From a virus: DNA of 64,000 bases. How positions within the stretch are numbered: the stretch's first letter is position 1; every line of letters starts with the position of its first letter. A program made the translations under genes and the position numbers. Below the pieces are notes generated by a model. It did no database searches. It was not told the origin of the DNA and saw only the letters and a program-made list of their open reading frames with translations. Location: positions 31,654 through 95,653 of IMG/VR virus record IMGVR_UViG_3300045116_000451; one strand, 5' to 3'. This document shows, in pieces, positions 14,976 to 36,188 of the stretch.

Positions 14976-15386
14976 TCAAGCCCTCTTTTGCCACGCGAGG
15001 TACGAGAAGACGGCGGCCGCGATGGCGCCGACCGCGGTCACGCCGCCCATGATCTTGATGGGCAGCATGGACTTGTCGATGTTGGCCTGCACGGTCGGCC
15101 AACTCTGGTTGACCACGTACTGGATGAGCCCCTGCGCGCCCCCCTGAAGCAGTCCCTGCAGGTCAGAGACCGCGTCTCCCATCCCGCAGCCGCGAAGGCC
15201 GGGGGGCACATGCGAGCGCAGCTGGGACATGTAGGTGTGCGCTCCGAGGCCGTCCAGGAAGCGGGGGCCGGCGGCCGCGGGCGAGTACATGGCCTGCGGG
15301 ATCGCCGGGTTGTGCGTGCCTGCCTGGAAAGCTTCGAACGCAAGGCCCGGCGTGGGCTGGACCGGCTGCTGCGGGAAGTAGCTCAT
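14976..15386 (-). CDS. putative virion membrane protein
   Basis: C-terminal TM helix then QKRA; LDGLG motif. Confidence 0.7.
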   Translation of the reverse strand: MSYFPQQPVQPTPGLAFEAFQAGTHNPAIPQAMYSPAAAGPRFLDGLGAHTYMSQLRSHVPPGLRGCGMGDAVSDLQGLLQGGAQGLIQYVVNQSWPTVQANIDKSMLPIKIMGGVTAVGAIAAAVFSYLAWQKRA

Positions 15387-16012
15387 TTCTGCCTGCTCCT
15401 TCTCACCGCAGCATACGCCTCGTCGATCGCCTTGAACAGCTTCGCGTCCAGCTCCGCGCCTTCCTTGTCGCGCCCAGCTCGGTCTGGGTGGTAGCGCGCC
15501 ACGAGCTTCTTGTAGGCGCGTTTCACGTCCTGGTCGTCGGCGTCTGGATCGACCCCGAGCGTTCTGTAGGCCCACGCGAGGTCACCGTTCGACCCGGGCG
15601 AACGAACGGGAGGGCGCCATCGCTTCACGTGCTGCGCGGCCGTACGCATGCACGGAAAGCACACGACCGTGGCGTCCATGGCGACCAGGCAGTGCCCAAC
15701 GCACACGGGCATCCCGCAGAGCAGGCAACAAGCAGCGGCCTGGGCGCCGCACCACTCGTCGGGCTTTCGCTCGAACGCGCACACGTGCGGGCCATCGACC
15801 GGCAGCACCCACTTCGAAGGCGCGAAACGAGCGACGTTCGCGGCCCAGGGCAACAGGACCGTGAGAAGCAGACGCTGCGCGCTTTCGTCCAGGTACGATT
15901 CGATAGTCTGAGCGAGCGAGCCAAGCTGCGCGAGCGTGTGCAAAGATTCAGCGGTTTTGGCGCTCGGACGGCCACCCGCCATCGCTTGCCGGAACATGTC
16001 GAGAAGAGGCAC
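15383..16012 (-). CDS. J-domain (DnaJ-like) protein with Cys-rich Zn finger
   Basis: AYRTLGV...VKRAYKKLVARYHPDR...FKAIDEAY; CLLCGMPVCVGHC upstream. Confidence 0.9.
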   Translation of the reverse strand: MPLLDMFRQAMAGGRPSAKTAESLHTLAQLGSLAQTIESYLDESAQRLLLTVLLPWAANVARFAPSKWVLPVDGPHVCAFERKPDEWCGAQAAACCLLCGMPVCVGHCLVAMDATVVCFPCMRTAAQHVKRWRPPVRSPGSNGDLAWAYRTLGVDPDADDQDVKRAYKKLVARYHPDRAGRDKEGAELDAKLFKAIDEAYAAVRRSRQK

Positions 16013-16030
16013 GCGATCGAGCTTACCACA

Positions 16031-16258
16031 TCAGGGCCTCGGCTGGGCGCGCGAAACCCATTCGCGGGGAAGGTAGCGGGCTAGGTAGATGCCCGCACCG
16101 AGCCCAAGCGCGACCGACCCCGCTGCTACGATCCAGACCGGGATGCGCCGCTGCGAGAACTCGCGCACGTCCTCGGTTCCGAGCCCGGCGAGCAGCCCCG
16201 CGGCCGCGAGAAGCTTGTCGGTCACGTGAGGGTTGGCGAGCAGGATGGACGCGCCCAC
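16031..16258 (-). CDS. small membrane protein
   Basis: C-terminal TM helix. Confidence 0.55.
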   Translation of the reverse strand: MGASILLANPHVTDKLLAAAGLLAGLGTEDVREFSQRRIPVWIVAAGSVALGLGAGIYLARYLPREWVSRAQPRP

Positions 16259-16264
16259 GGCAGC

Positions 16265-17167
16265 TCAGTACCTGCGTGCGCCAGCGCGCAGCGTGAACAC
16301 GTCCCGCGACAGATCGACAGGAGGCTGCCCAAGACCCCGGATGCCCTTGTACGTTGCGCTGCTTGAAGCGCTCGCCGGCCGCGGCATGGGCGGCCGGAAG
16401 GCCGCGCTTGGCTGGGCGCTGTAGCGCGGCGGCGACGGAGCGCGTTGCATGGACGACATCGTGGCCGATGCGGGTGCCGGCCCGAAGGCCCCGGGGCTCG
16501 CGCTCGGCGCGGCGTAACTTGCCGAGGGCAACGTTCCGCCCCAGCGGCTGGCCGTGCTCGAGATCGCTCGCGACGCCGCGCGCCAGGCCGAACCGATGAT
16601 GCCCTGGCTGCCAGCGGGCTGCACGCCCGAGGGCATCGCGGTCTGCGAAACAGGCGCTACGTAGCCGGGGCCTGCCGGCGTGACGCTACCGGGCGCGAAC
16701 GGCCCCAAGCTCGCGCCGGGGGTCGTGCCCGCTGGCTTGCCAGGTCCGATCCCGCCGCCGCCTGGCAAGGGCATGGCGCCCGGCAGCGGGCCGCCGCTCG
16801 GCCATGCCCCGCCTCCGGGCTCGGGCAAGGCGCTCCAGGGCGACCCGGAGGGAAGGTACCCGCCGCCACCACCGCCATCCCCTCCGCCTCCACCTCCGCC
16901 GCCCCCTTGCTCGGCCGCGACTTCTTCGGGGGACTTTTTCGTGAGGAAGTGACAGATCAGGCCGGCGAGCAGCCCCGCGGCAGACCCCACGGCCGCTCCC
17001 TTGCCCCTCGATGGCTTGTAGGAGAGAGCGCCGATGCCTGCGCCACCAGCCAGGCCTGCGCCGAAGCACGCCAGGCTGCGCCAGTGCAAATCGAAGAAGC
17101 TCGGCTGGGCGCCGGTCGCGTCCGTGCCGAAGCCAGCCAAGGCCACGATGCAAGAGGGACAGGTCAT
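16265..17167 (-). CDS. Gly/Pro-rich putative virion membrane protein
   Basis: Two hydrophobic helices, poly-Gly, LAGFG and IRGLG motifs. Confidence 0.7.
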   Translation of the reverse strand: MTCPSCIVALAGFGTDATGAQPSFFDLHWRSLACFGAGLAGGAGIGALSYKPSRGKGAAVGSAAGLLAGLICHFLTKKSPEEVAAEQGGGGGGGGGDGGGGGGYLPSGSPWSALPEPGGGAWPSGGPLPGAMPLPGGGGIGPGKPAGTTPGASLGPFAPGSVTPAGPGYVAPVSQTAMPSGVQPAGSQGIIGSAWRAASRAISSTASRWGGTLPSASYAAPSASPGAFGPAPASATMSSMQRAPSPPRYSAQPSAAFRPPMPRPASASSSATYKGIRGLGQPPVDLSRDVFTLRAGARRY

Positions 17168-17210
17168 GCGCTGATCCTACGAGCGAGGGGCTTTTTGCCC
17201 AAGGCGCGCG

Positions 17211-18182
17211 TCACCATCTTTCGGCGGCGCGCGGCGCGAGCAGCTTGCGGGCCGCGAGATAGCCTAGCGACAACCCGACGACGAGCATGGCGGCCTTCTC
17301 CCAGCCCTTGGCCTTGGCGAGCACTTGTTGCAGGCCGCTGCCACCAGGCGGAACGACGCCGGTCGGAGGTCCGAGCCCGGGAGGCACTACCGGGGGGCCT
17401 ACTTGCGTGGTTGCCGCGACCACAAGCGGCTTGAGCGTCTTGGGGTCGAACGCCGAGCCCGTCGCGATTCCGTAGCCGCCCGTGCCGAGATACGGCGGGT
17501 TCGAAGCCCACGCGTTGTCGGGCAGTCGGTCGTGCACCTTGGCGTACACGTACGAGTAGCCCCATGGCAGCGCCGCGTCTGGGACGCGCCGGTATTCCCA
17601 GTACGCCTGGTTCGAGATCCAAAAAGAGAGCGCGGCCCTCTGCCAGACGTCGGTGTCGATGTCGCCCGATGAAAAGCTTGCTTCGAGCGGCATCAGGCCG
17701 ACGACGAACACCTTGGGCGTTCCGCGGCTGCCGGCGAGCGCGTTCGCGAGGTACTGCTTCCAACGCTGCACTTGCGTGGCGAAGCTTTTCTCGGTCGCGT
17801 TCGGCTGGAACACGAGATCCACGGTCCAGGTGCCTGCCCCTGCCTGCAAGCTTTCGTTCCACGAGTCGCCGAACGGAAGGGTGTAGGTGTGCGGTTCTAG
17901 GTACTTCACCACGTCGCCGTTTGGCACGTGACGAAGCGCAACGCCCTTGACTTGATAGGGTCCGGCAAGCTCGCCCGTGACGGCGAACGTAGCGCCGACC
18001 TTTTTCGCAAGGTCAACGAGCAGGTGCGCGGGAGGGACGTCGAGTTCCCAGTCGTGCAGGACGACGCGAAGAACGTGATCGATGCCCCCCTCGAACGTTG
18101 CGCTCGGGGCCGCCAGCGACCAGCCTGCGAGCAGGAAGTTGTCGTAGCTGCGAAGGGCCTGGTAAAGCTCGGTGTCTGACAT
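17211..18182 (-). CDS. putative virion protein with C-terminal TM anchor
   Basis: 323 aa, AAMLVVGLSLGYLAA then RK. Confidence 0.7.
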   Translation of the reverse strand: MSDTELYQALRSYDNFLLAGWSLAAPSATFEGGIDHVLRVVLHDWELDVPPAHLLVDLAKKVGATFAVTGELAGPYQVKGVALRHVPNGDVVKYLEPHTYTLPFGDSWNESLQAGAGTWTVDLVFQPNATEKSFATQVQRWKQYLANALAGSRGTPKVFVVGLMPLEASFSSGDIDTDVWQRAALSFWISNQAYWEYRRVPDAALPWGYSYVYAKVHDRLPDNAWASNPPYLGTGGYGIATGSAFDPKTLKPLVVAATTQVGPPVVPPGLGPPTGVVPPGGSGLQQVLAKAKGWEKAAMLVVGLSLGYLAARKLLAPRAAERW

Positions 18183-18280
18183 GCGGAACCCCGGGTTCGA
18201 GATCGGCCAGGGTGCGCTCGGGCTTGTTGTTTGCCGTCGCGACCGCGTGCGATCCTACGCCGGGGTTCCGAGATCGACCA

Positions 18281-19075
18281 CTACCGCAGGCTCTCGCTCA
18301 GGTCACGCTCGATCTGCTTGAGCAGCATGGCCGGGCACTTGTAGCCCATCACCTCGCCCTGGATGAAGGCGACCGGGCTTTCGATCTGCCGGTACACGAC
18401 GCCCGTCATGGTGAAGATGACGTCCTCGTAGACGTACTCGGTGAAGGGAGCATCGGGGGCGCCGTAGCGGCGCGGCGTCTGAGGCATGACGCTGGAGCCG
18501 TATCCCGCGGCGGAAGCGTACTGCGTGGCCGCCGCGATGATGAAGTCGGCCGCGGTCTGCTGGCGGATGGGCACGATGGGCCCGCGGCTCATCTGGCTGG
18601 ACTGCGTGCGCAGCGTGCTTGGGATCGGGTCGAGCCGGTAGCGCAGGTTGCCCGGGTTCTGGTTGTTCATGCGCACGACGTAGCCGAGCGAGCCCGACAA
18701 GCGGCCCTCATCGAGCGGCACGAAGTCGAACGCGTTCACGCCGCTGAAGCGATACGGCTGGATGCGGTAGTCCAGGAGAATGATGGCCTGCCCGACGTCG
18801 GCCTTTACGGCTCCGATCTCGAAGCTCGTCGGGCTGGTCGGCGATCGTGCCGGGTCGAACCACGCCTCGTTCGGCTCGACCCGGAAAAGCTCGTGGTAGG
18901 GCTTGGTCTCGGGGTTGCGGGCGATCTTCGCCATGATGGCGCCCGCTTCCGAGACCACGGACGAGGCGCCGGTGCCTGGTTGGCCGGACCAAGGCGGCGG
19001 AATGGGAGCGCTCGGATCGAGCGGGCACCCCTCTCGGTTCAGGGGCCCCGTGTGCAACGGAAAAGGCTTCGGCAC
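18281..19075 (-). CDS. putative minor capsid (jelly-roll-like) protein
   Basis: Beta-rich pattern, adjacent to the capsid candidates; fold is inference. Confidence 0.45.
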   Translation of the reverse strand: MPKPFPLHTGPLNREGCPLDPSAPIPPPWSGQPGTGASSVVSEAGAIMAKIARNPETKPYHELFRVEPNEAWFDPARSPTSPTSFEIGAVKADVGQAIILLDYRIQPYRFSGVNAFDFVPLDEGRLSGSLGYVVRMNNQNPGNLRYRLDPIPSTLRTQSSQMSRGPIVPIRQQTAADFIIAAATQYASAAGYGSSVMPQTPRRYGAPDAPFTEYVYEDVIFTMTGVVYRQIESPVAFIQGEVMGYKCPAMLLKQIERDLSESLR

Positions 19076-19094
19076 GGCGACCTCCTAGAGCCCG

Positions 19095-20078
19095 TCAAAT
19101 CATGCGCACGCCAGCCGGCTGCAGGATTCGGAACCCGAGCAGACCGACGATGACCACGCCGTCGGGCTTGCGAATGATGGTGTCCTGCACGCCCTCGTCG
19201 CATTCCCATTGCGAGTAGCCGATGCCTTCGTGGCCGTCGTACTGGCCCGCGAGGTAGGGCATCGAGCCCACGATCGCCTGGATGTTGCCGGCGATGGGAT
19301 TGTTGATGTGCATGGGCTCCAGTTCCAACTCGATCGTTTCGCCCTTCTCCCAGTAGTCGAGAACTGGCAGCGTGAGCATCTGCTCCATGCCGGGGGCCCA
19401 CAGGCTCGACGGGACTTTGTCGGACTGGCGAGGGTAAACCGCGCCCTTGAGCGAGATCCAGCCGTCCCACTCCATCGTACGGAACGGAGATTGGTTGGTC
19501 GCGCGGTGCGGCACGGCGCCAAGGGGCGTCGTTTGCGGCGGCACGCACCCCTCGTTGCCCAGGTTCCAGCTCCAATCCCATCCGTTCATGGCGTCCATGA
19601 AGTCGAGCACGCTCGAGATGGGACGCTGCCTGCCCCAGGAGCGCCCTTCGAAACGCTGTACGTTCTGGCCGTCGGTCACTTCGAACCCGTACAGGGACAC
19701 GAACGTCGCGTAGCGCGCAACGGCGACGAAAGGCCCGTCCTGCGAGATCGTGAAGCTGCCCGAGACGCCCGTTTGAAGGTTCGCGGGCACGGCGATCTGA
19801 ATGGGGATGTCGAACGGGATCCTGCGGCCCGGGATGTCCTCGATGGCGAGCATGTCGGGCGTTCCGAGAAGGGTCCCTCCGCCCTTGGAGCCTCGGACCT
19901 TCATGCCTTCGAGCATGCCGCCCATGCGCTGGATGGCGGCGGCGTGCGCGGCGTGCGAGCGGCGAAGCTCGTCGTGAGCGGCGCCGAGCCTGCGGCTCGC
20001 CTCGACCGCTTCTCGGGCGGCGCGATTCGCGCCGTCCGTCATCTGCTGGATACGTGCCCAGATTTGGTTGATGTCCAT
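19095..20078 (-). CDS. putative capsid/penton protein with N-terminal coiled coil
   Basis: N-terminal heptads then beta-rich domain ending VIVGLLGFRI; strong codon bias. Confidence 0.5.
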   Translation of the reverse strand: MDINQIWARIQQMTDGANRAAREAVEASRRLGAAHDELRRSHAAHAAAIQRMGGMLEGMKVRGSKGGGTLLGTPDMLAIEDIPGRRIPFDIPIQIAVPANLQTGVSGSFTISQDGPFVAVARYATFVSLYGFEVTDGQNVQRFEGRSWGRQRPISSVLDFMDAMNGWDWSWNLGNEGCVPPQTTPLGAVPHRATNQSPFRTMEWDGWISLKGAVYPRQSDKVPSSLWAPGMEQMLTLPVLDYWEKGETIELELEPMHINNPIAGNIQAIVGSMPYLAGQYDGHEGIGYSQWECDEGVQDTIIRKPDGVVIVGLLGFRILQPAGVRMI

Positions 20079-20180
20079 CTGTCGCTCCTTGCGCCTTCGA
20101 GCGCGGAGTCACCGGCCCCCGGGATCTCCGAGGGCCGGCGCGATCAGGGATGCGAAGCGGGCCCGGCGGCCCGCCCCGGG

Positions 20181-20948
20181 CTACTGCACGTCGCGGCTCA
20201 GCAGGCCGTCGATCGTCATCGACACGACCTTGGTGATCGCGTCGACGGCGTTCAGGTTGCTGATGGGGTCGCGCATGTTGCGGTTCTGGTTGGTCGCGGT
20301 GCCGAAGACGGTCGCGTTGCCGCCGTCCGGGTACGCGACGCCCTGGACGCTCACCTTGATGAACTGGCGAGGCGTGATCGTGATGGCGCGCGCGATGCGC
20401 AGGATCGCCGCGTGCGTCGAGTCACCGTTCTGCCAGTGGATGAGGTCGGTCGGGCCACCGTTGTCGCCGCTCAGGCCGCCGCCGTACGGGAAGTACATCG
20501 TCGGCATCGACTTGAGCGAGTCCTTCTCGCCGGCTCCGAGCGTCCAGAACAGGCCCTCGGCGCACTGCGAGTGCAGGCGGTAGACGTCGTAGAGGTCGCC
20601 CGGCGCGTTGCCGATGGCGACACCGCCCGGACCGTTCGGCCACACGATGGCGTCGCCCGGCGTGACGTGGCCCCAGTCGCCGTTGACGGCGACAGGGCCC
20701 GCGGGATCCAGCACGCGCTGGATCGGCGCGCGGAACCAGAGCATGACCCGCGCGGCCAGGATGATCATGCTCGAGTCGTTCGGCAGGATCGCGCTGGTCT
20801 TGAGGTTGGTGAAGCCCTCGTCGCGGCCCTGCAGGATGAACAGGTCCGTCTGGGGGTTGAGCCCGCCGGGGCTGATGCCGAACGTCCTGATGAGGGCGTC
20901 TCGGTACGGCTGGTGGACTCGCTCGCGCACATTCAGAATCTTTGCCAT
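20181..20948 (-). CDS. putative major capsid protein (single jelly-roll-like)
   Basis: 255 aa, very high GC3, GGAG RBS, follows core protein; QPYRD...TNL..SAILP...IDGLLSRDVQ pattern; no TM. Confidence 0.6.
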   Translation of the reverse strand: MAKILNVRERVHQPYRDALIRTFGISPGGLNPQTDLFILQGRDEGFTNLKTSAILPNDSSMIILAARVMLWFRAPIQRVLDPAGPVAVNGDWGHVTPGDAIVWPNGPGGVAIGNAPGDLYDVYRLHSQCAEGLFWTLGAGEKDSLKSMPTMYFPYGGGLSGDNGGPTDLIHWQNGDSTHAAILRIARAITITPRQFIKVSVQGVAYPDGGNATVFGTATNQNRNMRDPISNLNAVDAITKVVSMTIDGLLSRDVQ

Positions 20949-21067
20949 GGTGGTTTCTCCGTTGCCCGGGTATTCACCCGGTTGCTTGCCGGCCGGTGCT
21001 GTTGTTCACGCGGCCAAGTTCCGCGAGCCGGCCGGCGTTGTTCCTTTTTTCCTCGTGGTCCCCGGCA

Positions 21068-23731
21068 TCAGCCGAAGACGCCGTTCGAGCCTCCGACGTC
21101 GAAGATCCCCGTGTCCGGCGCGATCTCCTGCCCACCGACGACGCTCATCTGCGTGGTCGGCACGTAGTCGGAGCGCGTTCCGGGCCCGCCGCCCGTCAGC
21201 ATGCCGGGCCCGGCGCCCAGGCCCGCTGCGGCCTCCATCACACCGAATTCGGCGTCCAGGTTCCCGTCCGGGCGCACGCCGTCGTTGATGTAGCCGAACC
21301 CATCCGCTGAGCCCGAGAAGCTCGGCAGCACCTCGTAGTCGCCGTAGCCCTCGACCTGCAGGCCCGAGGCGACGTACTCGCCGAAGTCACTGACGGGCGC
21401 GAGCGAGCCGTCCGAAACGTACTCGCCGGTGCCGGTCACGTACTCGCCGAAGCCGGCGTTTGCCTGGTAGAACTGGCCCATGCCGGCGGCAGCCTGCACG
21501 AAGCGCGGGTCACCGAAGCCGGCGTTCGCCTGGTAGACGGGCTGCCCGAAGCCGCCCATCACGTAGCGCGAGCGCTGGCCCTGGCCCGGGATGCCCGAGA
21601 ACCCGGGGATGGTGTAGCCCACGGCGTTCAGAATGCCCTGGATGACGCCCGTCGCCATGGCGACGAAGCTGCCGACGCTCACGGCCTGTGCGTAGTGGCT
21701 CTTGCTCGGGTCGGTGAGGAACCACTTGCCCGAGGCGTACATGCCGATGCCACCGGCGACGACCTTGGAGGCGGGGCCGACGAACTTCGCGACGCCCGGC
21801 CCGAGGTAGCCGCCGAGGATGCTGAACAGGCCCGAGAGCAGGTTGATGCCGATGAACCCGCCGATGCCGGTGAGGCCGGCCTTGATGGCATCGCCCCAGC
21901 TCGGGTACGCGAGGTTCTCCATGTAGAAGCCCGGGTTCTTGCGGAACTTCTTGCCCATGCGCTTGTACATCTTCGACGCCTTCTTGACGCCGTAGCGCTT
22001 GACCAGGGCCTTCCACGTGCGCTTGCCGAAGCGCTTCTTCGCTTTCTTGCCGTACTTGCGCTTCTTGCTCGTGGACCGGCGCTTCTTGCTCTTGCCGCGC
22101 TTCTTTCCCTTGCTGCGCTTCTTGCCGCCGATCGCCCAGTAGTCGGGCTTGCGGAACGCGCTCTTGGTGCGCGCCTTCTTGAGGTACTTGCGGAAGCGCT
22201 TGGAGCCCATCATGGCCCGCACCCACGCGTCGAAGTCCTCGTACTCGGGGAACTGGCGCTGGGCGTGCCCCTCGGCCATGGCTTCCATCGCGAGGGCGAG
22301 CTGCTGGGGCGTCACGCCCATGTCGCGCGCGGCCTGCACGGCGGCGTACGTGAACTTCGGGGGCTTGGGCATCTTCGGGGGCTTGATGCGCCTGCCGACC
22401 CAGGGAGGAAGGAAGCCGGGCCCCCAGTCGAGGCGCTGAGCCCAGGCATACGGATCGAGGCGCTGGCCGCCGATGCCGGGCCGGAACGGGTAGCCGGTGC
22501 CTGCGCGCGTCTGCATGCGCGTGATGACGAGCAGGCGGCTTCGCGCAAGCGCCTTCTGCGACGCCGTCGCGCCCGGATGTGCGAGCACGGCCTGGAGCAG
22601 GCTTTCGGCGTAGCGGAAGTTGCGAGACCGAAGAGCCGTCAGGGCGCGCGCCAGCATGCCGGCCGGATCGCCGTGCCCGGCTGCAGCGCCGTACTGGTTG
22701 GGAGCGAACGGGCTGTTCTTGATGGTGACGTTGAGCGCGCCCCGTCCGCCCACGGCGTGCACACGACGAGCGCGCAGCGCGCCCTTGCGCGCGTAGCCCT
22801 TGCGCCCACGCTTGGCCTTGCGGCTGCGCTTGGCCTTGCGGCCGTAGCCCTTGCGGCCGCGCTTTCCCTTGCGCGCGTAGCCTTTGCGCCCGAAGCCGCG
22901 CTTGGCGTACGCGCCCTTGCGGCCCTTCTTGCGTCGGCGCTTGCCCTTGCCGCGACGCTTGCCCATGTTCTCCTCGAACTCGAAGCTCGAAGAGCTGGAC
23001 GAGCTGCTGTCGTCGTTCGCTTCGAACTCGTCCGCGTTGCGGCGGAAGGCTCGCACCTTGCCCCTGTACGGACGCAGGGTGAAGCTTTTTGAGATCAAGC
23101 CGGGAAGCCCATGGCGTCCCTTGCCCTTGCGGCCTCGCTTGCCCTTGCCGCGCTTGCGGCCCTTCTTGCGATTCTCTTCCATGACGATCATTGGATCCTC
23201 CGTCCAGGGTGGGCCGGCGCCCGGGCCGGCGGGGTTGTTGAGCGCGGTCTGGACGCCGTACTTCTTGGCGGCGGCGCGGATCCGGCGCTTGATCTTCGAG
23301 CGCACTGCCGGCGTGTAGCTCGGGCAGTGCTTGCCGCAGTAGCTGGCGGCGGCGCGCACGAACGATTGGCTCTGGGCCTTGGTTTTTCCGTGGATCGGGT
23401 ACGCGTAGCATTCCGGCAGGGCGTAGTGCTTTCTTTCTGTGGCACCGCGGCGGCGGTGTTTTGCTGGAGGTGACGAATGGCAGGTGACCCCGCCGACCTT
23501 CTTGGCGTTCGTGAGGAAGCGCCCCTTGTCGTCTCTGGGCTGCGCCCGCGGACGCCGCCGATTCCCCGGGTTCGAGATGCCCATGAGGGTGGTGACGCCG
23601 GCAGGGTTCGGGTTCAGGCGCAAGGGATGGCCCTTGGGTACGCCGTACCCCTTGGCGATCTTGCTGCTCACCTCGAAGACCTCGCCGGTCGCCACGCGCA
23701 TGCCTCTGCCGCATTCGCGGGAAGCCGCCAC
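21068..23731 (-). CDS. Basic (K/R-rich) membrane-anchored core polyprotein
   Basis: Long K/R tracts, QPRDDKGRF, DUF6582-like YALP..YPIH...RIRAAAKKYGV, hydrophobic helices, acidic C-terminal AGFG(D/E/Q) repeats. Confidence 0.75.
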   Translation of the reverse strand: MAASRECGRGMRVATGEVFEVSSKIAKGYGVPKGHPLRLNPNPAGVTTLMGISNPGNRRRPRAQPRDDKGRFLTNAKKVGGVTCHSSPPAKHRRRGATERKHYALPECYAYPIHGKTKAQSQSFVRAAASYCGKHCPSYTPAVRSKIKRRIRAAAKKYGVQTALNNPAGPGAGPPWTEDPMIVMEENRKKGRKRGKGKRGRKGKGRHGLPGLISKSFTLRPYRGKVRAFRRNADEFEANDDSSSSSSSSFEFEENMGKRRGKGKRRRKKGRKGAYAKRGFGRKGYARKGKRGRKGYGRKAKRSRKAKRGRKGYARKGALRARRVHAVGGRGALNVTIKNSPFAPNQYGAAAGHGDPAGMLARALTALRSRNFRYAESLLQAVLAHPGATASQKALARSRLLVITRMQTRAGTGYPFRPGIGGQRLDPYAWAQRLDWGPGFLPPWVGRRIKPPKMPKPPKFTYAAVQAARDMGVTPQQLALAMEAMAEGHAQRQFPEYEDFDAWVRAMMGSKRFRKYLKKARTKSAFRKPDYWAIGGKKRSKGKKRGKSKKRRSTSKKRKYGKKAKKRFGKRTWKALVKRYGVKKASKMYKRMGKKFRKNPGFYMENLAYPSWGDAIKAGLTGIGGFIGINLLSGLFSILGGYLGPGVAKFVGPASKVVAGGIGMYASGKWFLTDPSKSHYAQAVSVGSFVAMATGVIQGILNAVGYTIPGFSGIPGQGQRSRYVMGGFGQPVYQANAGFGDPRFVQAAAGMGQFYQANAGFGEYVTGTGEYVSDGSLAPVSDFGEYVASGLQVEGYGDYEVLPSFSGSADGFGYINDGVRPDGNLDAEFGVMEAAAGLGAGPGMLTGGGPGTRSDYVPTTQMSVVGGQEIAPDTGIFDVGGSNGVFG

Positions 23732-28040: not shown

Positions 28041-28044
28041 GTTC

Positions 28045-28740: not shown

Positions 28741-29523
28741 CGGTCCCTCCCATATCGCCCTCGGGGGCGTTCAACACGCCGCCGGTTCGTCGCAAGTGAG
28801 CCACCGCGTGCTTCCCGCACGAGCTTGACGACGGGTTTCAAGAATTCGCGTTTGCTCGCTGTGACCACGATGTATCCAACGACCGCCATGCCGAGCACCA
28901 TCGTAGCCGATTGAATGAAACCAGAAGTGAGCGGCCCCGCCCACCATCGATCGACGCACCATCCGAACGGGTTGAGCCGCTGCCAGTAAGGACACGCCTG
29001 CCGGCGAATTCCTTCGCGGTAGTCGTCGGGCGAAAGCAGGTCGGCGCCTAGCGATTGCAATTTCGCAGAGCCTCCCCGCAGTTGGGCGTGGCCCCGGGCT
29101 TCCGCGTCATCTTGTAGACGACCACGCCACCGACCAGGAGCGCGACCGCGCCGAGCCCCCAGAGCCACGCGCGCGAGCCAGGAGCCATCCCGGGCAACGG
29201 CATCGCCTGTCGTTCCTTGGGCAGATCGGAAATGCGAAGCTTCGGAAGCACCGCGAACCGAGCCGTGCTCGAGAGCGTCGGCGCAGCGGCCTGCTTGGCG
29301 GCGAGGGCTCGTGCCGCCGCTGCGTACGGCGAGTAGTCGATGGGCTTCGAGGGCGTGACGCAGTTGCCCTGCGCGTCCTTGACCTTGCCCGCGCCGCAGA
29401 CGGATGTGATCGCCCAGCCGACGCTCGGCTCAGCCGGCGTGCTCGGGATCTTCGTGATGAACCCGCCCACCGTGGGCCCCTGGCATCCGACGCCCGGAAG
29501 GTAGACCTGCCCCTCGGGGCAGC
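28280..29523. repeat. About 300-bp direct duplication (28280-28585 and 29220-29523)
   Basis: Both copies encode CPEGQVYLPGVGCQ...VCGAGKVKDAQGNCVTP...LPKLRISDLP with mostly synonymous differences. Confidence 0.9.
28737..29060 (-). CDS. small membrane protein
   Basis: TTG start after GGAGG, LQSLG, TM, TNRRR tail. Confidence 0.55.
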   Translation of the reverse strand: MQSLGADLLSPDDYREGIRRQACPYWQRLNPFGWCVDRWWAGPLTSGFIQSATMVLGMAVVGYIVVTASKREFLKPVVKLVREARGGSLATNRRRVERPRGRYGRDR

Positions 29524-29896
29524 CCGCCGGAGCCGGAGGCGTCACGTAGTCCTCGCCCGCCGGGCAAGGTCGTTTTGGCGGGACCTTGTAGAACTTGCCG
29601 CATTCGATACCGACGGCGCGCAGGGATGCCTTGGTCGCGGGCTCCCCGAACATCTGCTGGAACACGCTGTCGGTGCAGACGCCCCACAAGCCGTCTTGCG
29701 TCAGCTTTTTGGCGCCGGCTTCTTTCATGGACTTTTGCATGAAACGCGCCACCGCCGTGTCGCTCCATTCGTCAAGAACGCAGCTCGGGAACTTGACGAG
29801 CGCATCGGCCTCGGTTCCGAGCCCGAGCAAAGGGCCCCCGAGAGATCCGAGCCCCTGAGCGAGCGCGCCTCGACCGAAGATGCCAGCGTTTCTCAT
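29048..29896 (-). CDS. membrane protein with PG-binding-like domain and CPxG repeats
   Basis: VARFMQKSMKEAG...DGLWGVCT; C-terminal TM. Confidence 0.7.
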   Translation of the reverse strand: MRNAGIFGRGALAQGLGSLGGPLLGLGTEADALVKFPSCVLDEWSDTAVARFMQKSMKEAGAKKLTQDGLWGVCTDSVFQQMFGEPATKASLRAVGIECGKFYKVPPKRPCPAGEDYVTPPAPAGCPEGQVYLPGVGCQGPTVGGFITKIPSTPAEPSVGWAITSVCGAGKVKDAQGNCVTPSKPIDYSPYAAAARALAAKQAAAPTLSSTARFAVLPKLRISDLPKERQAMPLPGMAPGSRAWLWGLGAVALLVGGVVVYKMTRKPGATPNCGEALRNCNR

Positions 29897-30291: not shown

Positions 30292-30294
30292 GAC

Positions 30295-31038
30295 TCAGTA
30301 CCCTCCGGCGTAGGCAGGCTTTCTTTTGGTCGCGACGGAGATTCCGACCACGACCATGATGGCACCGGCGCCGAACCACGCGATGACCGGCAGGCCGAGG
30401 AACGGCTTCGTGAGGAAGCCCATGACGCCACCGCCAGGTGGCTGCACGACCGGCGGCGTGGTCGGTGGCGTGTACGTCGGGGGCACGGTCTTCACCGGCG
30501 GCGTGGTCGGTGGCGTGTACCCGCCCCCGCCTCCGACCGTGACGCACTTGTTCGTCTTCGGGTCGAGCTTCTGGCCGGTCGGGCACATTGGCGCTACAGG
30601 CGGCGTGTAGCCGGGAACTTCGCACGACTCCCTGCTCGGGTTCCAGACCTGACCGGTCGGGCACTCGGGCACAAGCTCGACCGGCTCCGGCGGGACGCTT
30701 GAAACAAGGCCCTCGCACGTTCCGGGGCAGGCGGCTTCGCAGTTGGGATCGCGTTCGCACATGCCCTGGCAGTTGAAGATGCACGTCGCAACCGCGGGAT
30801 CGGCGCCGAGTCCATGCAACGACGATGGACGAGCCCGACGCAGGTGCAATCCCCACGGCAGGCCACGACGATCAACCACGTTGTAGATGTGCGCACCGAG
30901 TCCTTCGTCGCCGAGTCCATCAAGCGACGTGCCCAGGGTAGTCGGTCCGCGGAAGATGCCCGTTTCGCCAAGGCCGCTCAGCACACCCGCGCCTCGCCGT
31001 CGAAACGTATCCCTCGTGTAGAAGATGCCTTGTGCCAT
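30295..31038 (-). CDS. Cys/Pro-rich virion membrane protein
   Basis: LSGLG, LDGLG, LHGLG; CPTGQ twice; YTPPTTPPV twice; C-terminal TM. Confidence 0.7.
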   Translation of the reverse strand: MAQGIFYTRDTFRRRGAGVLSGLGETGIFRGPTTLGTSLDGLGDEGLGAHIYNVVDRRGLPWGLHLRRARPSSLHGLGADPAVATCIFNCQGMCERDPNCEAACPGTCEGLVSSVPPEPVELVPECPTGQVWNPSRESCEVPGYTPPVAPMCPTGQKLDPKTNKCVTVGGGGGYTPPTTPPVKTVPPTYTPPTTPPVVQPPGGGVMGFLTKPFLGLPVIAWFGAGAIMVVVGISVATKRKPAYAGGY

Positions 31039-31049
31039 GTCCGTGCCTT

Positions 31050-31592
31050 TCACCACGCGGTCGCGTGTTCGCGCTTTCGCTTGATGCCAACGATGAGAGC
31101 GCCGACGGCAGCCAGACCGACCGCGCCCGCGCCAAGGTAGAGCGGGTCCTTGTACCAGGGGACCTTGCCCGCGGGCCCGACGCCTGGCCCCGTTCGGCCA
31201 GCGAGCTTGCCGTAGTAGCAACCTGCCCAGGCCGTGTAGTCGGCTTGCATCCCGGCGCAAGCAGCCGACGCCTGAGCCATGAGCGCCGAGTACTCGGCCG
31301 TCTTCGAGGGGTTCGCGGCGATGTCCGCCGCCATCCTCGTGTTGAACGCGACGCAGTCGGCGTGAGCCTGCGGGTTCGAGCTGACGGGAGCACAAGCGGC
31401 CTCGACGCCCGAGCCGATGCCGGGAAGAACGCCGAGGCCCTCGAGCGCCGGCATCCTGACGATCGGCTGCACGACGAAGTTTCCCTGCCGGCTGTCTTCG
31501 CGGAAAACCGGGCGCGTGTAGATCGGGCCGCGAATGTACGGCCATCGAAGCCACTCGAAGTACGTCGGGTTGAGGATGCGCCGGTGGCTCAT
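31050..31592 (-). CDS. virion membrane protein
   Basis: LEGLG motif, C-terminal TM then KRKR. Confidence 0.7.
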   Translation of the reverse strand: MSHRRILNPTYFEWLRWPYIRGPIYTRPVFREDSRQGNFVVQPIVRMPALEGLGVLPGIGSGVEAACAPVSSNPQAHADCVAFNTRMAADIAANPSKTAEYSALMAQASAACAGMQADYTAWAGCYYGKLAGRTGPGVGPAGKVPWYKDPLYLGAGAVGLAAVGALIVGIKRKREHATAW

Positions 31593-31972
31593 CGTCGCTT
31601 CCCGTGGCGCCGGCGGCGGCGCTTTCGGTTGGGGCTCGCGCTGCCAGTTCCGCGGTACGCCGCGTAGCCGGCGGAGACGATGGGGCCGCCGAACAGGCCT
31701 CCCCAGAACCAGCCGTGCTTGCCGCCGTGCGCCTTCTTGCCGATGTACCAGCCCATGGCCGCGCGAAGAGCGCCACCGACGAGGAGCACGCCGGCCAGAA
31801 TACCGAGGGCCACCATCTGCCCTCGCTTCGAGACTTGCTGCGGCTCGACAGCACCAAGGCCCGAGAGCCGGGCTTTGAGAGCCTCGCCGAAACGCATCGG
31901 CCGCAGGAAGAGCGCGGGCCTGCCGAACGAGAACGGCCCAACCGGGGGCCATGCCTGCCCGAGAGCGTTCAT
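31589..31972 (-). CDS. virion membrane protein (paralogue of 31969-32580)
   Basis: LSGLG; ALRAAMGWYIGKK; PNRKRRRRR tail. Confidence 0.7.
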   Translation of the reverse strand: MNALGQAWPPVGPFSFGRPALFLRPMRFGEALKARLSGLGAVEPQQVSKRGQMVALGILAGVLLVGGALRAAMGWYIGKKAHGGKHGWFWGGLFGGPIVSAGYAAYRGTGSASPNRKRRRRRHGKRR

Positions 31973-32580
31973 CGCGCACCTCGCTTGCCCTTGCGGGTCT
32001 TTTTGCGTTGCTTGGTGCCCCTCTCGACGAACACGTCATGCCCCACCACGCGCTTGCCGTGACGTTCGGTGTGGATTCGGATTTTGATCGTTCGCTGATC
32101 ACAAGCGGGCGCGAGAACGCCGATGGCACGATGCACCTGCGCTCTGCTCGGCGCTTGTGCAGGCGGGGTGAGGCGCATGCTGAGATTCGGGCATTTCGCT
32201 CCGGTTCGCTTGATGTTCGCGAGCGCGCTCTGTCCGGCGCCTGGCTTGGCGAAGAGCGCTACCCCGAATAGGCCCGTCGTGCCGAAGACCGTGCCGGCCA
32301 AGCTTCCGGCAATGGGGTGGCCCAGGCGCTTGCCCACGTAGTAGCTGCTCGCGGCTCGAAGCGCCATGTACACGAGGAACGTGATGCCCATGCCCTTGAG
32401 CACGCGCGAGAACGCGGTCGTGAACGGCTCCCAGGTGCTCGGTGGAGGTTGGGATCCGTTCGCGCCTAGGCCCGCCATGGGACGCAGCGACGGCACCACC
32501 GAGATCACGTGCGGGTTGTAGTACGCCCCGAGCCCCTGAAGAGGGCTCGTCTGCGGGTACGAGTAGTAGTTCGCGAACAT
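31969..32580 (-). CDS. virion membrane protein
   Basis: LQGLG, MAGLG; ALRAASSYYVGKR; basic tail. Confidence 0.7.
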   Translation of the reverse strand: MFANYYSYPQTSPLQGLGAYYNPHVISVVPSLRPMAGLGANGSQPPPSTWEPFTTAFSRVLKGMGITFLVYMALRAASSYYVGKRLGHPIAGSLAGTVFGTTGLFGVALFAKPGAGQSALANIKRTGAKCPNLSMRLTPPAQAPSRAQVHRAIGVLAPACDQRTIKIRIHTERHGKRVVGHDVFVERGTKQRKKTRKGKRGAR

Positions 32581-32581
32581 C

Positions 32582-33286
32582 TCACTCCTCACGCGTGAAG
32601 TAGTTGATCGCGAAGGCGAGCGCGACGCCGAAGAGCACGCCCCCGCCAGCCCAAGCGGCGTACTCGCCCCACGGGATCGCCTGCGCATCGCCGAGACCTC
32701 GAAACGCGTACCTCGTGTCCGTCGGAGCGCCTCGAACCATCCCGAGCCCGGAAAGGGGCGGGCTCGAGGAAGCGACCTCGGGCATCCGCACGGGCCCGAA
32801 AGCGGGGTTCGTCGAGTACGGGCGCTCGGTCTCGAGGTCGTAGGACCGGTACGTCTCGACCACGTCGTCGTACCAGGACCCGCCCGCGTTGGGCTGGTAG
32901 ATGACGGGCTGGCCCGTCGTCGTGTCGATGATCTCGGAGGGCTGGGTCGGCTGCTCTCGGTACAGGTACCCGGGCAGCGCGAAGTGGTGCTCGAAGACGC
33001 CGGCGCCAGCGTTGCCGGTCGGCGGAGCCCCGGGCCCGTCGAAGATCCCGTTTCCGACGACGTCGTCTTCCTGCTGGGCCTTTCGCACGGACTCGTCGTC
33101 GCCCGACCAAGAGTCGCCCCACTGCTGCGTGTCGGGCAGCTCGCCCAGACCTCTCAACTGTCGTCCGTACGGCATGGCTCGCATCCTCACGTAGCTCGGG
33201 TTGATCGAGCTTGGGAACATGTCTGGCGGGGCCTGCACCTGCGATCGACCGCAGACCGGAGTGGACATGAAGCGCGGGACGTTCAC
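32582..33286 (-). CDS. virion membrane protein
   Basis: LRGLG, LSGLG, FRGLG; C-terminal TM. Confidence 0.7.
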   Translation of the reverse strand: MNVPRFMSTPVCGRSQVQAPPDMFPSSINPSYVRMRAMPYGRQLRGLGELPDTQQWGDSWSGDDESVRKAQQEDDVVGNGIFDGPGAPPTGNAGAGVFEHHFALPGYLYREQPTQPSEIIDTTTGQPVIYQPNAGGSWYDDVVETYRSYDLETERPYSTNPAFGPVRMPEVASSSPPLSGLGMVRGAPTDTRYAFRGLGDAQAIPWGEYAAWAGGGVLFGVALAFAINYFTREE

Positions 33287-34077
33287 GGCTTCTTTCTCCT
33301 AGCGACGACGACGATCACGGCGATGAGCCCGGCTGCAGCAGCCGCGCCAACGCCGATGACCACGTTGCGACACGCGGGGCGTTGCAGGCAACCCGACGGG
33401 GGCGCTTCGTCCACAACGGGAGATGGCGCGATGCAGGTCTGCGTGCCCTGATCCCAGGCGAACCCGCTTTCCAGGCACTTGCGAACATCCGGCGGGATCT
33501 CCGTGAGCCCGGGCCCGGGACCCGGACCTGGAGGGCGGGGCGTGGGAGGAGAGAGCGGCCGCAACGACGGGAGCGCGCCGTCAGGTGCAGGCGCCGTTGC
33601 GGACTGCGAGAGAATTTTCTGCTCGGGCCCGAATGGTCGCTGCTGCAGCATCTGCAGGTCGGCGCGTCGGGCGAGCGTGCTGAAGGCGGACGACTGCCCG
33701 AGGCCGCTCACCTGCTCGCCGTACGAGGGCGGCAGCCAATTCGGCACGGCCCTCGTCGCCGGGTATCGACCTGCCATCTGCGACGGGGCGATGGCCGGAC
33801 CGATGCGCGATGCTTCGACGGGCGGGGCTCCACGCCTCACGCCCCCGATCTCGAGCGCCTGCTGGCGGGCGAGCGTCGTGTACGCCCCGGGTGAGACCGC
33901 CGCAGCCGGGCTGAAGTGGCTCACGTCGCCGGCACCTTGCAGCGGGCGCTTCCTGCGGCAGCACGCGCGATGGTGCTCGGGGTACAGGGGATGGCCCTTC
34001 GGGCACGGACAGCCTGCGAAGTACATGCCGCGAGCGTAACCCCGTCGGGCTGGAGCGAGAAGGCGCGCGTCAGGCAA
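33283..34077 (-). CDS. virion membrane protein
   Basis: LQGAG, VSGLG; C-terminal TM then RRKK; start may be ATG 34026. Confidence 0.65.
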   Translation of the reverse strand: MPDARLLAPARRGYARGMYFAGCPCPKGHPLYPEHHRACCRRKRPLQGAGDVSHFSPAAAVSPGAYTTLARQQALEIGGVRRGAPPVEASRIGPAIAPSQMAGRYPATRAVPNWLPPSYGEQVSGLGQSSAFSTLARRADLQMLQQRPFGPEQKILSQSATAPAPDGALPSLRPLSPPTPRPPGPGPGPGLTEIPPDVRKCLESGFAWDQGTQTCIAPSPVVDEAPPSGCLQRPACRNVVIGVGAAAAAGLIAVIVVVARRKKP

Positions 34078-35020
34078 CTCGGGAGCGCACCGACAACTCG
34101 CCGAGCGTCTCTACGTGCGCCGGTACATTGAACTCACGCAGCAGCACGAGGTGGCCTGGGTCCGTGATCACCCAAGGGTCCGTTCGCTCATCCCGTGTGC
34201 GCCTCACCTTGCCGACGTTCTTGGAATGCACGTCCGCGAGCAACATGTCGTTGTCCATGTAGTAGGTGAGCGCCTCTCCGACGAGGCGCGAATCGGGCTC
34301 GCTTCGCAACGTGGCCGCACACAACTCGAGGCCCGCCCAAAGGAGCGCCAGTCCGTCGAGCGTCCAGGCGCTCTCAAGATCCAAACCGCGCAGAACGAGA
34401 GTTTTTCCGGACAACAGAGACACGTCCCCAGCCAAGCGCTTGGATCGTTCTTTGATCGTCGGCATGATCATGGGGATCGCGCTCATATTGTCCCATCCGG
34501 ACAGGCTGGCCTTTCGCATTATGACGGCCGCATTTTTGTACTCGCGCAGGACGTTCCTGAACACATGCACGGACTCGCAGTTCGCGACGAGCCTGGTCCA
34601 GCCAGGGCGCCTGCTCTGTCGCTCGCATTCCTCGCTCAACCTTTTCACGTCGCCGATGGCGTAAGCGCGTTCGCGCCACAGAAGGTGCACTTGTGCCGGC
34701 TCATCGTGTCCGGGCACCTCGTGCCGTCCAGGGACGCGCACGATGTCGTGGTAGCGCACGACGCCTTCGTGTTTCAGGTTCAATGCGCTCGTGAGCGCGA
34801 CGAATTCAGCTTCCGAGTTATCGGTCGTGATTTTGAACACGACGTCAGCGACGCTCGTGTTGTAAACGCAGCCGTAGCTCCCGCAGCCGAGAGGCTGCCA
34901 CAACGCGACCGGAGACCCTACTGGAAGCAGGTCGCGATCGACGCGCTTGCACAGCGACGTCCAGTTCGCTGCAAGGATTTCGTCGACCCATCCGGGAGGG
35001 TTCGCGCACGCGTTTTTCAC
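34070..35020 (-). CDS. protein kinase-like protein
   Basis: LGCGSYGCVY Gly loop, VVFK, EAE, DVHSKN catalytic loop, ITDPG. Confidence 0.8.
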   Translation of the reverse strand: MKNACANPPGWVDEILAANWTSLCKRVDRDLLPVGSPVALWQPLGCGSYGCVYNTSVADVVFKITTDNSEAEFVALTSALNLKHEGVVRYHDIVRVPGRHEVPGHDEPAQVHLLWRERAYAIGDVKRLSEECERQSRRPGWTRLVANCESVHVFRNVLREYKNAAVIMRKASLSGWDNMSAIPMIMPTIKERSKRLAGDVSLLSGKTLVLRGLDLESAWTLDGLALLWAGLELCAATLRSEPDSRLVGEALTYYMDNDMLLADVHSKNVGKVRRTRDERTDPWVITDPGHLVLLREFNVPAHVETLGELSVRSRVA

Positions 35021-35592
35021 GGCCGCACCGCCCGTCTCGCAGCGACCCGCGTCCGAGCGTCGAGATCCCCCAGCGTCTCGATCGCGAACTCGGGCCTCTC
35101 GGCGCCAAGAAAGATGACGTGCCCGGGGTCCGTGATCACCCACACCTTCTCACGGTCTCGCTTTCGCCTGGTGACGATTCCCACGTTGCCAGGGTGAACG
35201 TCGCTCACGAGCACGTCCTTGTCCAGGCACAATCGCAGCGCTTGGCCGATTCGGCGAGACATGGGATTTCGAATGAGGGTCTGGATGCTCGCCTGCGTGG
35301 AAGCCCATGCCATTGCGGCGCGCAGAACGATCGGGTCCACTAAAGACCCTCGGGCATCGTCGGTGTGAAGCACGAGCTTTGATGCCGGATGCTTCGCTTC
35401 CTTGAGCACGACATCCTTCGCGGAAGTTGCGTACACGCACCCGTAATAGCCGCAGCCGAGCGCTTTCGGGCTTTGCTTTGCACGACCAGCCGGCAGAAGC
35501 TCGGACGAGAGCCTTCGCGTCAGCTCGGTCCAGTTCTGCCTGAGCATCTTGTCGACCCAGTCGGGTTCGTTCGGGCTGGCAAGTTGGCTCAT
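35017..35592 (-). CDS. shortened kinase-like paralogue
   Basis: LGCGYYGCVY, VVLK, DVHPGN, ITDPG; about 125 aa shorter internally. Confidence 0.7.
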   Translation of the reverse strand: MSQLASPNEPDWVDKMLRQNWTELTRRLSSELLPAGRAKQSPKALGCGYYGCVYATSAKDVVLKEAKHPASKLVLHTDDARGSLVDPIVLRAAMAWASTQASIQTLIRNPMSRRIGQALRLCLDKDVLVSDVHPGNVGIVTRRKRDREKVWVITDPGHVIFLGAERPEFAIETLGDLDARTRVAARRAVRP

Positions 35593-36188
35593 TCGTCCAC
35601 GCTGATGGTCTTGTACGATTTAATCGCCGAGAGCATCTCCTGCTCGCGCGTGCCGGCCACGGGGTCGCACACGATCCAGGTCTGCGATCGGGGCTCGCGC
35701 AGGCACGCGAACACGTGCGTGTACTCCCCACCGGGCTGGAAGGCCGCGATCGTGTAGCGGGCCTCTCTGCCGAGCGTCATGCCGAGCGCGGCGATGAGCG
35801 TCGCGATGTCGTCGCAGTCGACGAGCGCGACGCGTTGCTTCTCGATCTCGAGCAGGGTCCGAAACGGCGTCTTCACCTGCTCGACGTGTCGGGCGTCGTT
35901 CGAGTAGCGCAGCCAGGGGCTCGTGCACCAGCCCCGGATGGCAAGGATCTCGCTCAGGTAGTCCTTGGGTCGAAGATGCCGGACGATCGCTTCGGCCCAC
36001 TGGCGCACGCGGTAGTTCTGCTCGCCCTCCTTGCCGCGGGCGTACCCCAGCATCATGTGGATGGTCTGGTCGGTCCCCTTGAAGCGCCCGAGCCACGGCA
36101 CGACGGGCTCGGAGCCAGGCGGCGCCCCGTAGCCCGGGAACGAACCCGTGGCGACGACGGGCACGAAGCTTGGGGAGCGCAGGAACAT
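35589..36188 (-). CDS. transglutaminase-like cysteine enzyme (candidate maturation protease)
   Basis: DCDD (Cys), YTHVF (His), WIVCDP (Asp) triad. Confidence 0.85.
   Translation of the reverse strand: MFLRSPSFVPVVATGSFPGYGAPPGSEPVVPWLGRFKGTDQTIHMMLGYARGKEGEQNYRVRQWAEAIVRHLRPKDYLSEILAIRGWCTSPWLRYSNDARHVEQVKTPFRTLLEIEKQRVALVDCDDIATLIAALGMTLGREARYTIAAFQPGGEYTHVFACLREPRSQTWIVCDPVAGTREQEMLSAIKSYKTISVDE

Follow-up and report, generated by a model that had tools for sequence, protein, structure and literature searches.

A recurrent hydrophobic-x-Gly-Leu-Gly motif in the membrane proteins of a large bacterial virus, and the transglutaminase-fold enzyme that may read it

Why should about eleven proteins of one virus, nearly all of them anchored in a membrane and with mutually unrelated sequences flanking the common element, carry the same glycine-rich pentapeptide? 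The question arises from a stretch of viral DNA of 64,000 nucleotides (the window), covering bases 31,654-95,653 of the 95,653-bp IMG/VR record IMGVR_UViG_3300045116_000451, in which the minus strand from about position 36,188 down to 14,285 forms a tightly tiled gene block with many 4-bp overlaps of start and stop codons (positions are those of the window unless stated otherwise). An initial annotation, made from the sequence alone, took the pentapeptides for cleavage sites of a maturation code that runs through most virion proteins and is read by the enzyme encoded at the head of the block, a protein of 199 amino acids (aa) with a transglutaminase-like fold. Our analysis partly supports this interpretation: The motif is real, conserved at the level of the protein and confined to the block of structural and membrane proteins, and its position downstream of a conserved enzyme suggests a protease-driven maturation of the virion.

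A motif confined to the membrane-protein block

Gene calling used a codon model trained on the 95.6-kb record itself and yielded 121 genes, of which the 23 lying between 14,900 and 34,100 were counted as the block and the other 98 formed the comparison set. Expected counts were taken from shuffles of each protein that kept its composition. In its strict form, [LIM]xGLG, the motif occurs 15 times in the block against 0.76 expected, about 20 times chance, and only twice in the remaining genes against 1.9 expected, so that the enrichment over a Gly-rich background foreseen by the initial annotation is borne out. Relaxing the form to [LIMF]xG[LFM]G yields 19 sites in the block versus 1.8 expected. 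The code had been modelled on the consensus of adenain, the adenovirus protease, and here the annotation does not hold. The type 1 form, [LIM]xGxG, is found 29 times in the block versus 12.2 expected (14 versus 20.4 elsewhere), about half of this count coming from the GLG subset, beyond which the generic form is not enriched; nor is the type 2 form ([LIM]xGG.), with 15 versus 12.3 in the block and 15 versus 20.5 in the other genes. The real motif is therefore hydrophobic-x-G-L-G, narrower than the adenain consensus. An unbiased scan for gapped patterns also ranked L.GLG first among those common to at least five proteins (12 occurrences in 8 proteins, 0.45 expected), the other top patterns being poly-Gly runs, basic tails and a Cys-rich repeat.

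Could the motif be a mere by-product of a Gly- and Leu-rich composition in a record of 66% guanine plus cytosine (G+C), of spurious open reading frames (ORFs) or of a repeat in the DNA? The proteins of the block do contain 12.5% Gly, and the ORFs of the initial annotation did overlap. Against such an origin stand the shuffles, which keep this very composition, and the position of the sites in tiled genes with coding signal: The overlapping longest ORFs (30295-31941, 31050-32129 and 31589-31972) resolve into such genes, with every site still inside a called gene. Moreover, 20 sites use 16 different 9-nt codings and the series GGN-CTN-GGN is specific to one frame in the block, so the selected signal lies in the protein and not in the DNA; the varied codons rule out a DNA-level repeat as its source. 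The same pattern recurs in relatives spanning 56-68% G+C. We reject this explanation, which has next to no chance of being right.

The pentapeptides listed by the initial annotation are all present in their ORFs, and most copies lie in N-terminal leaders, usually at the end of the leader and followed by A, D, Q or E, as it had also stated; these leaders contain no signal peptide. A membrane helix is predicted in 10 of the 11 site-bearing proteins, generally C-terminal and followed by a basic tail. Two matches, LWGLG and IIGLG, fall inside membrane helices, and some copies fall among the first seven residues (1-7) of the protein as called, LAGFG at residue 3 being one. To speak of most virion proteins was too broad, since the four capsid candidates (17211-20948) have no site, and in the 877-aa core protein only MGGFG fits; NAGFG, AAGMG and AAGLG, which had been included, lack a hydrophobic first residue, and the other G-F-G repeats of this protein do not match the motif. 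Two adjacent carriers lie ahead of the window, on the minus strand at genome positions 17185-18336 and 18339-18674, each having a leader with the motif (LPGLG at residue 15, FAGLG at residue 9) and one of the two having two membrane helices.

Two known roles of short motifs were considered and set aside. A lipoprotein lipobox does not fit, there being no Cys after the motif, no hydrophobic signal before it and no restriction of the second position to Ala or Ser; cross-linking of Gln to Lys at the motif does not fit either, as neither residue is conserved there. The literature searched contained no description of the motif or of a transglutaminase-like virion protease.

Relatives were collected by scanning IMG/VR with a profile of the enzyme, which gave 25 loci, a few of them near-duplicates, on contigs of 25-182 kb. 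Across these loci the same-strand genes downstream of the enzyme gene contain the strict motif 72 times versus 7.9 expected, and all other genes 5 times versus 3.9. A complete 138-kb relative, for which 213 genes were called, behaves likewise: Its block (93-109 kb) contains 11 sites versus 0.69 expected, and its other 190 genes 3 versus 2.6. The 179 distinct instances, over half of them among the first 60 residues, give the logo [P/G/A]-[L/V/M/I/F]-[A/S/x]-G-[L>I,M,F]-G-[A/D/Q/E], with the same residues after the site as in our genome; the most distant loci (L017-L019 and L024) mostly have F or M at the fourth motif position. Enrichment in the structural block, conservation across relatives and placement at boundaries between leader and domain, the features that define motif-coded virion maturation as a functional class, are thus all found together.

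Few proteins of the block align from one genome to another, namely the enzyme, the 234-aa protein encoded at 32582-33286, the pair of 131 and 200 aa, a part of the 877-aa protein, the capsid candidates of 255, 327 and 225 aa and the DnaJ protein. Among them only the 234-aa protein, our best candidate for a substrate, is a site-bearing family in which the positions of the sites can be compared. It has orthologues in 24 of the 25 loci, adjoining or near the enzyme gene, and its two sites bracket a conserved central domain, their positions being conserved within linkers that are otherwise variable. Site 1 has the form G-R-x-hydrophobic-x-G-[L/F/M]-G, and site 2, which lies 10-20 residues ahead of the C-terminal helix, the form [V/I/L]-x-G-[L/M/I]-G. 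The sole constant residues of site 1 are the hydrophobic one and the first Gly, the latter in 15 of 15 sequences; because of this we infer that a cut would probably fall after the fourth motif residue, for a hydrophobic residue and a Gly placed four and two positions before the cut would produce just this pattern of constancy. A second leader element, NPx[Y/H/V/I], was noticed post hoc: It is found 5 times in 460 leader residues (HNPAI, ANPHV, LNPTY, YNPHV and INPSY) versus 3 times in 5,501 other residues of the block, and in relatives it stands 14 residues ahead of site 1 of the 234-aa family.

The transglutaminase-fold enzyme

What kind of protein stands at the head of this block? The AlphaFold2 (AF2) model of the 199-aa protein (predicted local distance difference test, pLDDT, of 84) places Cys125 at the start of helix 125-138, His158 on strand 156-164 and Asp175 just after strand 171-174, an arrangement of the triad as in papain-like enzymes and one that agrees in both fold and triad with the transglutaminase core of clan CA. 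The three residues belong to the segments DCDD, HVF and DPVAG, which 24 homologues, with identities down to 44%, all keep unchanged. The best fold match is 3kd4, a 'putative protease' (Z 14.5), followed by human TG3, factor XIII and TG2 (Z 10-11), the 'putative cysteine protease' 3isr (Z 10.6; Foldseek E 5e-5), TglA and PNGase (both Z 9.0), LapG (Z 8.9), the CPR-C4 protease (Z 8.6), PeiW and PeiP (Z 8.3) and, far below, NlpC/P60 enzymes (Z about 4). The Pfam family PF01841 scores 15.9 bits on this protein (E 0.001) versus a cut-off of 23 bits, with precomputed matches on many of its homologues; a sequence search of the PDB with the enzyme profile gave no match. On the model, we regard the transglutaminase-core fold proposed by the initial annotation as settled. 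The fold does not fix the reaction, since proteases, cross-linkers, amidases, isopeptidases and inactive members all occur in the family.

Homologues of the enzyme form 244 clusters, many of them on contigs of 60-130 kb, and its gene is present in all 30 related records examined (the 25 loci plus 5 reached through the capsid gene). In each it lies upstream of the block, as the initial annotation had described for this locus; it is a core gene of the group. The co-occurrence of enzyme and motif that the annotation anticipated is thus universal, though no relative free of the enzyme is at hand as a control. The putative link between the two comes from this co-occurrence and from synteny. The enzyme has no hydrophobic signal at its N-terminus, the first 35 residues being disordered and variable, and as the leaders of the motif-bearing proteins also lack a signal peptide, both would be on the cytoplasmic side. 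When the enzyme was modelled in complex with the N-terminal part (residues 1-75) of the 234-aa family, the score was 0.00, a result obtained without controls that is not evidence either way.

That no adenain is visible here, as previously noted, is confirmed: With E values allowed up to 10 in this genome, and up to 1 in five relatives of which three are complete, PF00770 (C5) and PF02902 (C48, Ulp1) gave no match. Scanned against Pfam and PHROG, the proteins of the block likewise yielded no protease and almost no family. Outside the block there is one further protein with a protease signature, HEAGH (a form of HExxH), encoded at a distance of 1.2 kb from the gene of the enzyme. Four of 5 relatives, among them all three complete genomes, have it too; in relatives its gene lies 40-60 kb from the structural block. 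It has no Pfam or PHROG match, and the Atlas structure rows, with SprT-like and YgjP-like proteins at template modelling (TM) scores of 0.43-0.52, are leads only; it may be a minimal zincin.

Processing sites or docking signals?

In functional terms, these observations pose a choice: Are the motifs cut, and if so by which enzyme? The reading we favour, tentatively and at somewhat less than an even chance, is that they are processing sites cut by the transglutaminase-fold enzyme, which would trim the leaders and release the central domain of the 234-aa family from its anchor. The structural block supplies jelly-roll capsid candidates together with more than 10 small proteins having a C-terminal membrane helix and a basic tail. 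Most of these small membrane proteins would be made with an N-terminal leader of about 10-100 residues, ending in [small]-[L/M/I/V/F]-x-G-[L>I,M,F]-G-[A/D/Q/E], which is read here as the processing site. The cytoplasmic Cys-His-Asp enzyme would cut these motifs during assembly, thereby trimming the leaders, and in the 234-aa family a second cut, at the site ahead of the helix, would free the central domain from the membrane. We infer both that the sites are cleaved and that this enzyme cleaves them. Three precedents favour the scheme: LapG, a protease of transglutaminase fold, recognises a short small-residue motif and there severs an N-terminal module from the remainder of its substrate (PMC6890996); giant phages remove N-terminal propeptides by means of a motif, sometimes at several sites per propeptide (PMC10052503); and the consensus of adenain is (M/I/L)XGX-G (PMC3386624).

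Several points weigh against this reading. Where the motif stands at residues 1-7, cleavage would take off next to nothing and a docking signal would be the better fit, although start codons are uncertain. Six loci, forming one subclade, have LAG[T/S/A][D/E/N] at site 1 instead of xGLG. The status of the carriers as virion proteins is deduced from synteny with a jelly-roll model of moderate confidence, and the fold of the enzyme is also that of cross-linking enzymes, amidases, cell-wall isopeptidases such as PeiW and PeiP and inactive scaffolds. The presence of the enzyme in every relative deprives the co-occurrence of a negative control, and the conserved HExxH protein offers an alternative protease.

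How else, then, could the motif be explained? It might never be cut, serving instead as a docking or assembly signal by which the membrane-anchored proteins attach to one shared partner (the capsid shell, a scaffold or a chaperone such as the DnaJ protein of the block) and are recruited to the forming viral membrane, with the enzyme doing something unrelated. The conserved position of the motif within flexible, variable regions would suit such a role, as would the copies at the very N-terminus, which leave little to remove, the presence of a DnaJ-domain protein inside the block and the NPx[YHVI] element of the leaders, which points to a structured module for recognition. We nevertheless consider docking rather unlikely, because leaders with tandem copies (three in 30295-31056, two or three in 31969-32580) are typical of propeptide fragmentation (PMC10052503) and less so of a lone docking site, because the 234-aa family has sites on both sides of a folded domain, and because the hydrophobic residue and the Gly are in the register of P4 and P2 of Cys-protease sites such as those of adenain (PMC3386624). 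If the sites are cut, the protease could also be a different one, either the HEAGH protein or a protease of the host, leaving the transglutaminase-fold enzyme to act as a cell-wall endo- or isopeptidase in entry or lysis, or as a cross-linker. The HExxH protein is conserved and in our genome close to the enzyme gene; zincins commonly cut ahead of hydrophobic residues, which would match a cut between G and L; PeiW and PeiP, which share the fold of the enzyme, are phage pseudomurein isopeptidases; and the SLT transglycosylase encoded by the genome implies a host with peptidoglycan. This alternative appears doubtful to us, given that in the relatives the HExxH gene is remote from the structural block while the transglutaminase-fold gene is always at its head, that the HExxH protein matches no recognised peptidase family and has weak Atlas rows, and that NlpC/P60 cell-wall peptidases match the model of the enzyme so poorly.

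A further possibility is that the enzyme works like a sortase, cutting the motif to form a thioester and then transferring the product to the amine of a capsid lysine or to a lipid head group and thereby joining components of the virion by covalent bonds. The chemistry would allow it, for transglutaminases proceed through an acyl-enzyme that amines can resolve and the fold relatives include true cross-linking transglutaminases; furthermore, site 2 of the 234-aa family, in which the motif is followed by a membrane helix and a charged tail, recalls C-terminal sorting signals. Yet the motif contains no conserved Gln or Lys, most sites are N-terminal rather than C-terminal, and the spacing from motif to helix is longer than in known sorting signals, all of which renders a transpeptidase very improbable.

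The virus and its place among known systems

The features discussed here are collected in table 1. Two kinase-like paralogues (34070-35592, minus strand), each with a Gly-rich loop and DVHxxNVG and one of them internally shortened, separate the enzyme gene from the 234-aa gene; they are not found at this place in the 25 related loci. On the other side of the enzyme gene, 36242-36775 encodes a phosphatase-like CX5R protein. Three membrane proteins encoded at 26595-29896 (minus strand) have in common Cys-rich 'CPxGQ' repeats and long Pro/Gly-rich stretches, and the C-terminal tails after their membrane helix are extremely basic. Neither the 200-aa nor the 131-aa protein has a Pfam match.

Table 1. 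Site-bearing genes of the block and neighbouring features, in window coordinates
Position	Strand	Feature	Motif sites	Remarks
14976-15386	-	136-aa membrane protein	LDGLG 15243-15257	
15383-16012	-	DnaJ (J-domain) protein		Inside the block; Pfam E 2.7e-13; conserved in 138-kb relative
16031-16258	-	75-aa membrane protein	LAGLG 16178-16192	Site added to those of the initial annotation
16265-17146	-	293-aa Gly-rich membrane protein	LAGFG 17126-17140; IRGLG 16328-16342	
19095-20078	-	327-aa conserved structural candidate	None	N-terminal helix and beta-rich body; Atlas model of low confidence
20181-20948	-	255-aa major capsid candidate	None	Single jelly roll in model; marks block as structural
21068-23701	-	877-aa basic, membrane-spanning, acidic 'core' protein	MGGFG 21545-21559	Partly conserved in relative G003
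24548-25542	-	Two conserved genes, 200 aa and 131 aa		Function not assigned; synteny anchors; tblastn matches in 21 of 25 loci
29048-29896	-	282-aa membrane protein	LLGLG 29816-29830; LWGLG 29150-29164	LWGLG inside helix; paralogue of 28045-28740
30295-31056	-	253-aa membrane protein	LSGLG 30967-30981; LDGLG 30910-30924; LHGLG 30805-30819	All three sites in leader
31050-31592	-	180-aa membrane protein	LEGLG 31431-31445	
31589-31972	-	127-aa membrane protein	LSGLG 31853-31867	
31969-32580	-	203-aa protein	LQGLG 32527-32541; MAGLG 32464-32478; LKGMG 32386-32400	
32582-33286	-	234-aa membrane-anchored protein	LRGLG 33143-33157; LSGLG 32741-32755; FRGLG 32690-32704	Helix from residue 209
33283-34026	-	247-aa membrane protein	LQGAG at residue 29; VSGLG 33697-33711	
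35589-36188	-	199-aa transglutaminase-fold enzyme		Cys125/His158/Asp175; candidate reader of the motif
36195-36224	-	Sigma-70-like promoter match		Just upstream of enzyme gene; 9 of 12 positions, weak, consensus match only
37431-38042	-	203-aa HEAGH (HExxH) zincin-like protein		Rival candidate protease

What kind of virion would these proteins build? The gene for the 255-aa capsid candidate has the strongest codon bias (G+C at third codon positions, GC3, of 0.95), and the protein has 412 homologue clusters, is 49-57% identical in relatives and occurs in some of these as two tandem paralogues. Its AF2 model (pLDDT 68) is most similar to the major capsid protein (MCP) of SPV1 (Z 7.8, root-mean-square deviation of 3.3 over 131 residues), then to HHIV-2 (Z 6.3), with further matches to HCIV-1 and to VP16 and VP17 of P23-77; as all of these lie below Z 8, with a Foldseek E of 0.13, the jelly-roll identity is a lead and not a proof. 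The adjoining gene encodes the 327-aa protein, 38-46% identical in 5 of 5 relatives. The HK97 capsid family PF05065 and the terminase family PF03237 (Terminase_6N), the only two tried, were found neither in this genome nor in four relatives, of which three are complete, and PHROG scans of 20 proteins gave no structural match; indeed, almost no structural protein of the group has a family assignment. A scan for Walker A motifs gave, besides two loose matches, just one AAA+ protein, encoded outside the block, no search having been aimed at the FtsK/HerA family of packaging ATPases. The fold of the capsid candidate and the absence of these families together make a tailless, membrane-containing virion plausible.

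The rest of the genome encodes RecT, YqaJ, an exonuclease, an SLT transglycosylase, a GDSL lipase, a ComM-like ATPase, SNF2 and SF2 helicases, glycosyltransferases, a radical SAM protein and a Cas12f-like protein; this gene content, the transglycosylase in particular, points to a bacterial host with peptidoglycan. The Cas12f-like protein (50123-52024, minus strand; 633 aa) has a Cas12f1-like TNB domain (Pfam E 8.9e-8) and shares 25% identity with one protein of the 138-kb relative; gene-free gaps near its gene, at 49122-50122 and 43058-43965, could hold arrays of clustered regularly interspaced short palindromic repeats (CRISPR). DNA of the virus is present in lake-water metagenomes. A search of genome contigs with the capsid profile found three short contigs in metagenome-assembled genomes (MAGs) of unrelated phyla; these are probably mis-binned, and therefore we make no host call. 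The enzyme and the capsid candidate have no tblastn match among 50,697 deposited phage genomes, and scans of viral contigs with single proteins gave no match. To judge from the homologue clusters of enzyme and capsid candidate and from contigs of 95-180 kb, the group is widespread in metagenomes. CheckV estimates the completeness of our record at 66%, and complete relatives measure 125-180 kb versus its 95.6 kb. Three relatives of 125-179 kb (G006, G007 and G010) have direct terminal repeats, which suggest complete genomes, linear or circularly permuted, larger than this record.

How does this arrangement compare with known maturation systems? As with adenain, a single Cys protease would act on many virion precursors marked by a short motif, and LxGL-G fits the type 1 consensus, with the hydrophobic residue four and the Gly two positions before the presumed cut (PMC3386624, PMC7998265). 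It departs from adenain in having no C5 or C48 match, no enrichment of type 2 sites and a Leu fixed at the fourth position; moreover, the candidate enzyme has a transglutaminase core instead of belonging to clan CE, the substrates are membrane-anchored and the host is bacterial. With LapG and the BTLCP family the enzyme would share a Cys-His-Asp protease of transglutaminase fold and a short motif of small residues, there P/T/A-A-A-G (PMC6890996). LapG, however, is periplasmic, calcium-dependent and regulated by LapD and cyclic di-GMP (c-di-GMP), with one or two giant adhesins as substrates, whereas here we find no signal peptide, a motif other than (P/T/A)AAG and a dozen candidate substrates in a virus; the closer fold matches are the uncharacterised 'putative proteases' 3kd4 and 3isr.

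Motif-coded maturation in bacterial viruses is represented by the prohead proteases T4 gp21, phiKZ gp175 and SPN3US gp245, which take N-terminal propeptides of 20-254 residues, often with several copies of the motif, off many head proteins (PMC10052503, PMC5694885). Those are serine proteases of tailed phages with motifs ending in Glu; in our virus neither the HK97 capsid nor the terminase family is found, and a Cys enzyme would act on membrane proteins. Among large membrane-containing DNA viruses, the Cys proteases pS273R of African swine fever virus (ASFV) and I7 of poxviruses cut core and membrane precursors at Gly-Gly-X or Ala-Gly-X. They belong to clan CE (Ulp1-like) and to eukaryotic viruses, and no such family is found here. 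The group of SPV1, HHIV-2, SH1 and P23-77, which provides the best fold match for the 255-aa candidate, also has many small membrane proteins in its structural module. Genomes of this type measure 17-31 kb, several times less than the 95-180 kb seen here, and the match amounts to Z 7.8 on a model of pLDDT 68. To our knowledge, no maturation protease is known for such viruses.

If the sites are indeed cut by this enzyme, it would be the first maturation protease of transglutaminase fold, and the virus would present the first case of motif-coded proteolytic maturation in a seemingly tailless, membrane-containing bacterial virus, a convergent counterpart of the systems of adenoviruses, asfarviruses and poxviruses. 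Should the enzyme work like a sortase instead, a bacterial virus would have a membrane-capsid interface covalently stitched by an enzyme of its own. The motif predicts mature N-termini for a dozen proteins without assigned function, and it supplies a peptide substrate with which the enzyme can be tested. Cleavage by the enzyme would thus bring motif-coded virion maturation to an undescribed yet widespread group of large bacterial viruses.

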